Positions 45,985 to 46,923 of a stretch of DNA of 59,659 nt are shown piece after piece; within the stretch, counting starts at the first letter, position 1; each line of letters begins with the position of its first letter. This DNA is from Clostridia bacterium (lineage in GTDB: Bacteria; Bacillota; Clostridia; Oscillospirales; CAG-272). The stretch lies in the NCBI GenBank assembly GCA_017452475.1, contig JAFTMJ010000044.1, forward strand, positions 1 through 59,659, in the 5' to 3' direction. The translations under genes and the position numbers were made by a program. The notes below the pieces were generated by a model. It saw only the letters and a program-made list of their open reading frames with translations. It ran no database searches and was not told the DNA's origin.

Positions 45985-46923
45985 ATGTACGGTTATTTTA
46001 GACCCTACCACTCAGGCTTAACCTATAAGGAGCGTGAGCTTTTTGAGTCGTACTATTGCCGTATTTGCTATTGCTTGCGTATAATCGGGGGACAAACGGC
46101 GCGTATGTGCACCACCTATGACGGTGCTATATATGGGCTGATTCTCAGCCTGCAAAGCAAGGAGACGCCGCCACCTGTTTTGCCCTGCGAAAGATTTGGA
46201 AAAAAGAACCTAAAAGCCTTTGTGGATGATGAAACGGGGCTAAGACTTGCAAGGCTCAGCTTAATTAGCGTTGGAGAAAAAATAAGGGATGACAAGCTTG
46301 ATAAAAACGACTTTAAAACCAAGGTTGTATCAAGCATCTTCTCACGGGCGATAGAAAAGGCAAAGGAAATAGAGCCGGAATTGGCAAAGGACTCCTTTGA
46401 GGGAACAGAAAGGATTAACACCCTCCAAAACGAGGGCGCGCCTCTTATGTCTGTTTTTGAGGCATACGGAGATATGGCGGTTAACTCCTTTAGCCGCTTC
46501 CTTGAGCTGTCGGCTCAAACCGAGGAGCTTGTGCGCAGCGTTTCCGAGTGGATTTTTTTGGTTGATATGGTTTGCGACTATGCAGACGATTATAAGGACG
46601 GCACCTATAACGGCTTTAAAACCGAGGGGCTCACCACCTTTTCTCAGTATTTCGATGCTCATTATAGGGAGTTTTTGCAAATAGCAAGAAGGGTAACGGG
46701 CAGGCTTATGTCGGCGCTGATGGCGGTGAAGGACGGCTCCCGCACCTGGAACACCCTTTATAAAATCATATCCCACGCAACGGAAACAGTAATTCAAAAT
46801 GCGATTTTGGGCAAGGATGTGGAGTTCCATTACTTTAAAGATTTGTTTGAAAGAATAGGCACAAGCCGTAGGTTTAAGAAGGATATTAAACGCTTGGGGA
46901 TACATAAGGATGAAAAAGGTTGA
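45985..46923 (+). CDS. DUF5685-like protein with Asp-rich motifs
   Basis: MYGYFRP...YYCRIC..L.....R...TYD N-terminus as recalled for DUF5685; DDKLD and DMVCDYADD motifs. Confidence 0.7.
   Translation: MYGYFRPYHSGLTYKERELFESYYCRICYCLRIIGGQTARMCTTYDGAIYGLILSLQSKETPPPVLPCERFGKKNLKAFVDDETGLRLARLSLISVGEKIRDDKLDKNDFKTKVVSSIFSRAIEKAKEIEPELAKDSFEGTERINTLQNEGAPLMSVFEAYGDMAVNSFSRFLELSAQTEELVRSVSEWIFLVDMVCDYADDYKDGTYNGFKTEGLTTFSQYFDAHYREFLQIARRVTGRLMSALMAVKDGSRTWNTLYKIISHATETVIQNAILGKDVEFHYFKDLFERIGTSRRFKKDIKRLGIHKDEKG

Follow-up and report, generated by a model that had tools for sequence, protein, structure and literature searches.

A DUF5685 protein with a predicted isoprenoid-synthase fold beside Cys-ended peptide genes in a Clostridia bacterium: a candidate peptide prenyltransferase

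Introduction

What might a protein of a Pfam family without a described function be doing between three small genes for Cys-ended peptides and a radical S-adenosylmethionine (rSAM) gene? The question is raised by a 59,659-nucleotide stretch of DNA (the window; contig JAFTMJ010000044.1 of assembly GCA_017452475.1) from a Clostridia bacterium, in which a DUF5685 gene occupies just this position. A preliminary description of the locus, made from the letters alone, had noticed Asp-rich motifs of the terpene-synthase kind in the encoded protein and had suggested that it prenylates Trp or Cys of the neighbouring peptides. We propose that it transfers a prenyl group from a diphosphate to a terminal Cys of these precursors, a reading that we hold tentatively and judge to be close to evenly balanced. 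The reading is built on a predicted isoprenoid-synthase fold, on Asp motifs conserved throughout the family and on close linkage to peptides that share a Cys end; the ligand would be a prenyl diphosphate. No described function for DUF5685 or its Pfam profile, PF18937, was found in the literature searched, outside which lie most subscription journals and supplements.

The DUF5685 gene and its product

The gene and the motifs discussed below are as follows.

45985..46923, forward strand: DUF5685 protein, 312 residues, predicted isoprenoid-synthase fold (PF18937 match, AlphaFold2 model)
46057..46074, forward strand: CRICYC, residues 25-30 (C25-R-I-C28, then Y-C30), candidate metal site together with C68 (46186-46188)
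46288..46302, forward strand: DDKLD, residues 102-106 (D102, D103, D106), closing helix 83-106 at its C-terminus
46564..46611, forward strand: D194-x3-D198-x3-D202, then N209, spanning helices 177-197 and 199-205

The protein matches PF18937 with 87.1 bits against a cut-off of 26.7, residues 1-258 aligning with positions 1-262 of the 272 in the profile, and a six-frame search of the genome with the same profile returns it again at 87.1 bits. No NCBIfam model matches it. By its profile match it is a divergent yet clear member of the family, which was detected in 37 of the 301 genomes sampled from the phylum. A public gene call (P0001, 272 residues) begins at M41 and so lacks the conserved N-terminus with C25 and C28 (window 45985-46104); we favour the 312-residue start because the Pfam match begins at profile position 1 and because the N-terminus is invariant. 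About a quarter of the 89 homologues described below, those of 274-285 residues, appear to be shortened at the N-terminus in the same way.

The gene is tightly packed against its neighbours. The stop codon of the third precursor gene ends at 45978, leaving a gap of 6 nt before the DUF5685 ATG at 45985, and the ATG of the rSAM gene at 46910 lies inside the DUF5685 gene, whose stop ends at 46923, giving an overlap of 14 nt. Both had been claimed in the preliminary description, and the coordinates bear them out; the ORF (open reading frame) translation likewise places DDKLD, the Asp-rich DMVCDYADD (residues 194-202, 46564-46590) and the N-terminal CxxC where they had been reported.

Conserved residues

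A word-indexed search found 89 DUF5685 homologues, and exhaustive searching with HMMER gave 907 cluster representatives with E <= 1e-3, 106 of them with E <= 1e-10 and 20 with E <= 1e-30. Two alignments were made. Alignment A1 comprises the query and 36 of the 89 homologues, at 34-73% identity; alignment A2 comprises the query and 48 of 150 listed representatives (near-full-length matches and four long forms), at 17-63% identity. The invariant residues of A1 include C25, C28, C30, D46, P63, P64, C68, K99, D102, D103, D106, Q148, Y161, D194, D198, Y199, D202 and N209. In the 49 sequences of A2, which reach down to 17% identity, M1, G3, C25, C28, D102, D194, D198, D202 and N209 remain invariant, and Y4, Y24, D46, C68 and D106 are conserved in at least 90%. 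C30 is thus an invariant residue of the peptide-cluster subfamily, C25 and C28 of the family as a whole.

The signature of DUF5685, as read from these alignments, is a CxxC...C cluster, D(D)xxD and D-x3-D-x3-D-x6-N. A lone DDxxD in 312 residues is by itself weak evidence, and it is the conservation that makes the case. The earlier suggestion of paired Asp motifs holds for both in their family-wide conservation; only the first is a DDxxD, the second being a D-x3-D-x3-D.

Predicted fold

The AlphaFold2 model computed from alignment A1 is all-alpha, with 13 helices (pLDDT, the score predicted for the local distance difference test, 91.4; predicted template modelling score, pTM, 0.89). It was compared with 48,161 representative chains by VIA-align, which is independent of Foldseek. 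The best match is Rv0562 (9imq_A), a C45 isoprenyl diphosphate synthase, with 243 residues aligned at a root-mean-square deviation (rmsd) of 3.4 and a Z of 15.7, to be read in the knowledge that helical models without kinship can reach Z of about 14. All 50 matches listed have the isoprenoid-synthase fold, down to a Z of 8.5 at rank 50; among them are trans-isoprenyl diphosphate synthases (trans-IPPS), MoeN5 (Z 13.4), UbiA homologues (10.4-10.5), squalene and dehydrosqualene synthases (9.2-9.9) and terpene synthase domains. When Foldseek's top 1000 chains were re-aligned, 494 of 995 reached Z >= 8. We find the assignment, which depends on VIA-align and not on Foldseek, persuasive despite the caveat on helical models, because the list of matches is so uniform, and conclude that DUF5685 is predicted to have the isoprenoid-synthase (class I terpenoid or trans-IPPS) fold. 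The model and the VIA-align matches agree in this with what the preliminary description had expected from the Asp motifs.

The placing of the two motifs in the model fits this fold. Counted by helix order, without superposition, the DDxxD closes the fourth long helix (83-106) and the second motif closes the eighth (177-205). The ends of helices D and H are presumably the sites of the metal-binding first Asp-rich motif (FARM) and second Asp-rich or NSE motif (SARM/NSE) of isoprenoid synthases. C68 falls in the loop that joins helices two and three, a position that we take to be the site of the GKxxR sequence that binds isopentenyl diphosphate (IPP) in trans-IPPS enzymes.

Precursor peptides and the acceptor residue

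The three peptide genes directly upstream are short and similar.

45471..45614, forward strand: precursor A1, 47 residues, ends GCCC; a member of the precursor alignment (A4)
45648..45794, forward strand: precursor A2, 48 residues, ends GCCC; ATG behind GGAGG (the ORF list has a TTG start at 45636)
45820..45978, forward strand: precursor A3, 52 residues, ends GGCCC; ATG behind GGAGG (the ORF list has a TTG start at 45805)

The true starts of the second and third are likely to be the ATGs at 45648 and 45820. Within the window, three of 245 ORFs of 40-70 residues end in CC, and these are the three precursors.

Alignment A4 brings together 36 peptides, the three of the window and 33 from 28 related loci; it excludes the peptides of L028 and L032, the first one of L021 and two from locus L023 whose tails are long and Cys-rich. 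Y24 and Q27 are invariant within an L-L-x-x-Y-x-x-Q sequence in the leader. H35 and D45 of the core are conserved in at least 90%, and the Cys end follows. This end is CC or CCC in 35 of the 36 peptides and CGC in the other, so that all 36 have at least two Cys among their last three residues. Trp is present in 14 of the 36, and no aromatic position of the core is invariant. The preliminary description had left the acceptor open between Trp and Cys. As far as the peptides themselves indicate, Cys is the likelier of the two, because the terminal Cys is universal and Trp is found in so few.

The two L023 precursors (L023:5380-5829) have the same type of leader and extended tails with 8-9 Cys. 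Such tails seem to place them part-way from the CCC-ended peptides to the cysteine strings of the J-domain proteins described below.

Conservation of the cluster

A scan of 185,579 species genomes gave 33 loci with relatives of the protein at 32-72% identity, in which neighbouring genes were scored by tblastn with the proteins of the window. All 33 come from metagenome-assembled or uncultured-isolate genomes, mostly Clostridia by title, and several from rumen or hindgut samples; three (L006, L019 and L022) lie at contig ends, where the cluster is incomplete. The DNA datasets that contain the window's sequence are animal-gut metagenomes from eight studies, one of them perhaps its source, and no RNA dataset is listed.

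The rSAM gene adjoins DUF5685 in 32 of the 33 loci. Immediately upstream of DUF5685, 31 have a short ORF whose last five residues include two or more Cys; the others are L018, which has none there, and L019, which has no upstream DNA. A DUF92 fusion gene of the kind described below is present in 27 loci, an HExxH protein in 26, and a UppS-family gene and a 307-residue protein in 13 each. We place the bounds of the cluster at 41751-48061 because the five window genes that flank it are present in none of the 33 loci. The minimal conserved set consists of the HExxH protein, the precursor, DUF5685, the rSAM protein and the kinase-like/DUF92 fusion, and within it DUF5685 is the only candidate for a transferase that uses prenyl diphosphate. 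A cluster for a peptide made by the ribosome and modified after translation (RiPP) is recognisable in the rSAM/SPASM protein together with a precursor family that has a conserved leader, a Cys end and linkage in 31-32 of the 33 loci. The cluster has no conserved exporter gene.

One further gene was considered and excluded. A 196-residue polytopic membrane protein encoded on the reverse strand at 48092-48682, directly after the rSAM gene, has no family match and is found in 0 of the 33 loci; it shows no relation to the small membrane protein that accompanies canonical DUF5685.

Canonical DUF5685 proteins and their Cys-tailed partners

The same genome has a second, canonical DUF5685 protein of 308 residues, which scores 248.9 bits (contig C63; L036:2756-4899). 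Its gene is followed by those of a 208-residue protein with a J domain and tetratricopeptide repeats (TPR), which has seven Cys among its last 20 residues, and of a 176-residue membrane protein without a Pfam match. A SpoIIR gene lies upstream on this contig.

Such an arrangement is common. In a sample of 30 canonical loci (L034 and L037-L065, each with about 1.5 kb of flank), 25 have as the next same-strand gene one for a protein with at least five Cys in its last 30 residues; apart from this genome's own copy, the count is 24 of 29. An HPD sequence is present within the first 90 residues of 23 of these 25 neighbours, and Pfam confirmed a J domain in both of the two Cys-tailed proteins tested. 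The five remaining loci are one in which DUF5685 itself ends in a tail with eight Cys (L064:1501-2631), two cut by the end of the locus (L052 and L055) and two without a Cys-tailed neighbour (L044 and L065). As a base rate, such tails end 0 of the window's 92 ORFs of at least 100 residues and 4 of the 772 of that length in the 33 peptide-type loci. The statement in the preliminary description that other DUF5685 genes adjoin proteins with Cys-rich C-termini is substantiated by this survey, and from the sequences sampled the link appears to be general.

Some members of the family carry Cys-rich segments of their own. P0112, P0117, P0159 and P0163 have about 250 extra residues at the C-terminus, ending in a SPASM-like Cys motif, which Pfam at 1e-3 leaves uncalled, and P0203 joins a DUF5685 to Zn ribbons and a long Cys string. 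Archaeal Cys-rich proteins (PMC13692751) were also considered and set aside as another system; the accessible portion of that paper mentions neither prenyl groups nor DUF5685.

The canonical proteins resemble the peptide-cluster type in their Pfam family, in the invariant residues and in the Cys-rich C-terminus of a neighbour. They differ in their match to the profile (249 bits compared with 87) and in their partners, a J-domain/TPR protein and a small membrane protein, and in the loci tabulated they were not seen paired with short precursors, rSAM or isoprenoid genes.

Other genes of the cluster

The remaining genes within the bounds of the cluster are these.

41751..43217, forward strand: membrane protein, 488 residues, CdsA/dolichol-kinase/phytol-kinase-like N-terminus and C-terminal DUF92 (PF01940, AlphaFold2 fold)
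43228..43920, forward strand: UppS-family cis-prenyltransferase, 230 residues, second copy in the genome (PF01255, 3.6e-65; TIGR00055, 199 bits, cut-off 109.55)
43932..44855, forward strand: 307-residue protein of no family, internal CxxxCxxC, no Pfam or NCBIfam match
44870..45460, forward strand: HExxH protein, 196 residues, candidate leader peptidase (HELAH motif; sub-threshold WLM and SprT-like matches)
46910..48061, forward strand: rSAM/SPASM peptide maturase, 383 residues (PF04055, 1.4e-17; PF13186, 3e-5)

The first two could supply an isoprenoid donor. PF01940 (DUF92) matches residues 238-478 of the 488-residue protein with 6.4e-41; this is presumably the family that holds the phytyl-phosphate kinase VTE6, and we take it to correspond to COG1836. 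The N-terminal 240 residues have no Pfam match of their own, and a search of the genome with PF01148 at E <= 10 found cdsA alone and not the fusion gene; 2 of 27 orthologues do match PF01148 in this part, at best with 8.8e-5. The kinase-like N-terminus is modelled by AlphaFold2 with a pLDDT of 88.3, and its best fold match is CdsA (4q2e; Z 9.2 over 167 residues), the next having a Z of 6.5. An Atlas cluster named 'phytol kinase family' was returned for the protein at 0.91, which serves as a lead only. In the available part of one paper (PMC9782597), COG1836 is linked to VTE6, the plant phytyl-phosphate kinase, and the prenol kinases VTE5 and FOLK are described as relatives of dolichol kinase. 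With moderate confidence, we regard the 488-residue protein as a candidate fusion of a prenol kinase and a prenyl-phosphate kinase, which would convert prenol to prenyl diphosphate in two steps. The genome has two UppS-family genes; the other lies directly upstream of cdsA on contig C25 (G000:C25:25423-26902) and looks like the housekeeping copy; that of the window is an extra one that belongs to the peptide cluster.

The PF04055 match of the rSAM protein starts at residue 9, leaving no N-terminal extension of the length of a RiPP recognition element (RRE). Its nearest NCBIfam models are DynA (1.2e-55), anSME (2.1e-50), GrrM, AmcB and PapB, all matched below their cut-offs. The 307-residue protein has 110 homologues, none with a Pfam domain, and BLASTP against the window's ORF at 53019-55013 gave nothing significant; as a guess, it could be a distant U32-like or Fe-S TIM-barrel enzyme.

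Proposed mechanism and alternatives

In the mechanism that we propose, DUF5685 would be a soluble enzyme that binds an allylic (poly)prenyl diphosphate through Mg2+. The metal would be held between the DDxxD at the helix D position and the D-x3-D-x3-D...N face at the helix H position, and would assist ionisation of the diphosphate. The thiolate of a Cys in the terminal CC or CCC of the precursor could then attack C1 of the donor to form a thioether. Speculatively, the Cys cluster of C25, C28 and C68, together with C30 in the subfamily, may hold a thiol-activating Zn2+, as in other thiol-alkylating enzymes. The donor may come from the kinase-like/DUF92 fusion, by way of prenol, prenyl phosphate and prenyl diphosphate, with a dedicated UppS paralogue at some loci. 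The rSAM/SPASM protein would cross-link the core, plausibly at the conserved His, aromatic or Asp positions, and the HExxH protein would cleave the leader. The product of these steps, whose order we have assumed, would be a lipid-anchored, cross-linked peptide.

Several results weigh against this proposal. Foldseek gives weak matches to the PDB (best E 7.3e-3, none <= 1e-3, TM-scores of about 0.5), all of them being polyprenyl synthases, MoeN5 or dehydrosqualene synthase, and the Z scores of VIA-align carry the caveat noted above. Sequence methods do not link DUF5685 to any isoprenoid enzyme: Pfam gives DUF5685 only; hhalign against a profile of IspA-like proteins gives a non-significant probability of 0.13 (E 0.43), in which the sole aligned segment pairs D102-D103 with the Asp pair of FARM; and a profile search of PDB sequences returns only designed helical repeats and noise. 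The second Asp motif departs from the canonical DDxxD. A co-fold of the protein (alignment A1) with a precursor (alignment A4), run without controls, scored 0.04 against a mark of 0.32 and counts neither for nor against. Among the related loci, just 13 of 33 have the UppS gene, and L030 and L031 have no isoprenoid gene (DUF92 or UppS) within 6.4-8 kb per side. L018 (L018:8001-8909), a member of the peptide-cluster subfamily at 43% identity, is an orphan: no rSAM gene, no precursor and no isoprenoid gene lies within 8 kb, and on its high-GC contig it stands between genes for a flavoprotein and a MATE-like transporter. No isoprenoid-supply gene was noticed in the canonical loci tabulated, in flanks of about 1.5 kb and without a dedicated scan. 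The three terminal Cys beside an rSAM/SPASM enzyme are also explicable by thioether chemistry alone, and the tails of the J-domain proteins and the precursor ends are not only dense in Cys but acidic, as binders of metal might be.

The Cys cluster of the enzyme and the acidic, Cys-dense ends of its partners would be accommodated just as well if DUF5685 is a metal-dependent (Zn or Fe-S) binder of Cys-rich tails that transfers no prenyl group, its Asp residues binding metal only; it might present or protect the Cys end of the precursor for the rSAM enzyme, or take part in the delivery of a metal or cluster. The invariance of C25 and C28 and the conservation of C68 would suit such a role, as would the J domain of the canonical partners, bacterial J-proteins such as HscB acting in Fe-S transfer, the SPASM-like Cys extension of four long members, and an rSAM domain that begins at residue 9 with no room for an RRE. 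We nevertheless consider it rather unlikely, as the strongest invariants are the two Asp motifs, at the positions that bind diphosphate and Mg in this fold, and the kinase-like/DUF92 fusion (27/33) and UppS (13/33) are left unexplained. DUF5685 might instead act on lipid alone, as a non-elongating synthase, a cyclase or a phosphatase-like enzyme, with lipid and peptide joined by the UppS paralogue, the DUF92 protein or an unlinked enzyme, or never joined. MoeN5, squalene and dehydrosqualene synthases and terpene synthase domains all figure among its fold matches, and the residues of its second motif stand at i, i+4 and i+8, a spacing like the one that we take the NSE/DTE triad to have in class I terpene cyclases. 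This is improbable in view of its genetic setting: the gene is translationally coupled to precursor and rSAM genes and has a precursor before it in 31 of 33 loci, the minimal conserved set contains no other transferase candidate, and canonical members pair with Cys-tailed proteins, no lipid gene having been noticed in the loci tabulated.

The remaining alternative is that DUF5685 is a C-prenyltransferase of the ComQ/PalQ type acting on Trp, Tyr or His of the core. All three precursors of the window carry a D-W-T-Y sequence, and the characterised peptide prenyltransferases related to trans-type synthases of isoprenyl diphosphates (trans-IDS) are all Trp-directed in the part of a review that was available (PMC13290415). 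Across the loci, just 14 of the 36 precursors contain Trp, and none of the aromatic positions is invariant; Trp prenylation like that by ComQ therefore cannot be the general function. DUF5685 also has no sequence similarity to PF00348-type proteins, and we regard this alternative as very improbable.

Implications

Transfer of a prenyl group to a terminal Cys, which remains our preferred reading, would have consequences beyond this cluster. In its widest form, DUF5685 would be the founding prokaryotic family of Cys S-prenyltransferases on an isoprenoid-synthase fold, in which canonical members lipid-anchor J-proteins and the subfamily makes polyprenylated, rSAM-cross-linked peptides, with the donor supplied by UppS or by prenol salvage. 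Taken as a whole this is somewhat unlikely. If it is true, the sources of prenol could be undecaprenol or, in herbivore guts, dietary phytol, and the canonical module would be a bacterial counterpart of the lipidated J-proteins of eukaryotes, such as farnesylated Ydj1/DNAJA and the palmitoylated cysteine-string protein. It would also give bacteria, to our knowledge, their first endogenous counterpart to the prenylation of C-terminal Cys in eukaryotes. A widespread J-protein module would be explained, and a new class of lipidated RiPP from uncultured gut Clostridia would be added. Measured against the accessible text of the review (PMC13290415), Cys prenylation would make this the first peptide prenyltransferase of the isoprenoid-synthase fold with an acceptor other than Trp. 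A testable activity would be gained for a Pfam family without a described function that has 907 representatives and occurs in 37 of 301 genomes of the phylum.

Comparison with known enzymes

The best fold matches are trans-IPPS enzymes, namely Rv0562 and the octaprenyl and solanesyl diphosphate synthases (Z 14-15.7, about 240 residues, rmsd 3.4-3.7), in which a DDxxD likewise stands at the end of the equivalent helix by helix order. Identity to them is about 10%, DUF5685 is some 25 residues shorter between the motifs, and it has the additional Cys cluster. The genome has a single PF00348 (IspA-like) gene, and the DUF5685 protein does not match PF00348. An alignment of 15 IspA-like proteins from relatives has as invariants G45, K46, R49, R98, R99, K182, T183, F221, Q222 and two DDxxD motifs; the IPP-binding residues of that family (the GK..R loop, RRG behind FARM, KT, and FQ ahead of SARM) have no counterpart in alignments A1 and A2. 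By its residues, DUF5685 is not a chain-elongating synthase.

The likeness to the eukaryotic protein prenyltransferases, that is, farnesyltransferase (FTase), geranylgeranyltransferase-I (GGTase-I) and Rab geranylgeranyltransferase (RabGGTase), would be one of function without homology, namely thioether prenylation of a C-terminal Cys. In those enzymes the thiol is activated by Zn, and the CC and CXC ends of Rab proteins are prenylated. They are alpha-alpha barrel heterodimers of an unrelated fold, and no FTase or GGTase chain is among the Foldseek and VIA-align matches listed. In DUF5685 a Zn site is only guessed at from the conserved Cys. We know of no bacterial enzyme of the isoprenoid-synthase fold that lipidates a terminal Cys. 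Cys S-prenylation itself is within the scope of the review cited above, to judge by its accessible part (PMC13290415).

MoeN5, a non-elongating enzyme of moenomycin synthesis, is similar in fold (Z 13.4, 227 residues aligned) and in size (261 residues). It differs in that its acceptor is a lipid-linked sugar intermediate and not a peptide, and no sequence relation to DUF5685 was detected. It provides a precedent for an isoprenoid-synthase fold that prenylates an acceptor other than IPP.

The closest known kind comprises ComQ, PalQ and the P domain of ChrPC, the trans-IDS-like prenyltransferases of RiPP pathways, none of the fold matches listed being a ComQ or PalQ chain. As far as the available portion of the literature describes them, DUF5685 resembles these enzymes in predicted fold, in Asp-rich motifs of the kind that binds Mg and diphosphate, and in a gene that adjoins that of the precursor. 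All characterised members use Trp as the target in the accessible text of the 2026 review (PMC13290415), whereas the conserved acceptor candidates of DUF5685 are C-terminal Cys. DUF5685 is set apart further as a separate sequence family (by Pfam, by hhalign against IspA-like proteins and by the PDB profile search), by its D-x3-D-x3-D second motif and invariant Cys cluster, and by its pairing with an rSAM/SPASM enzyme in 32 of 33 loci.

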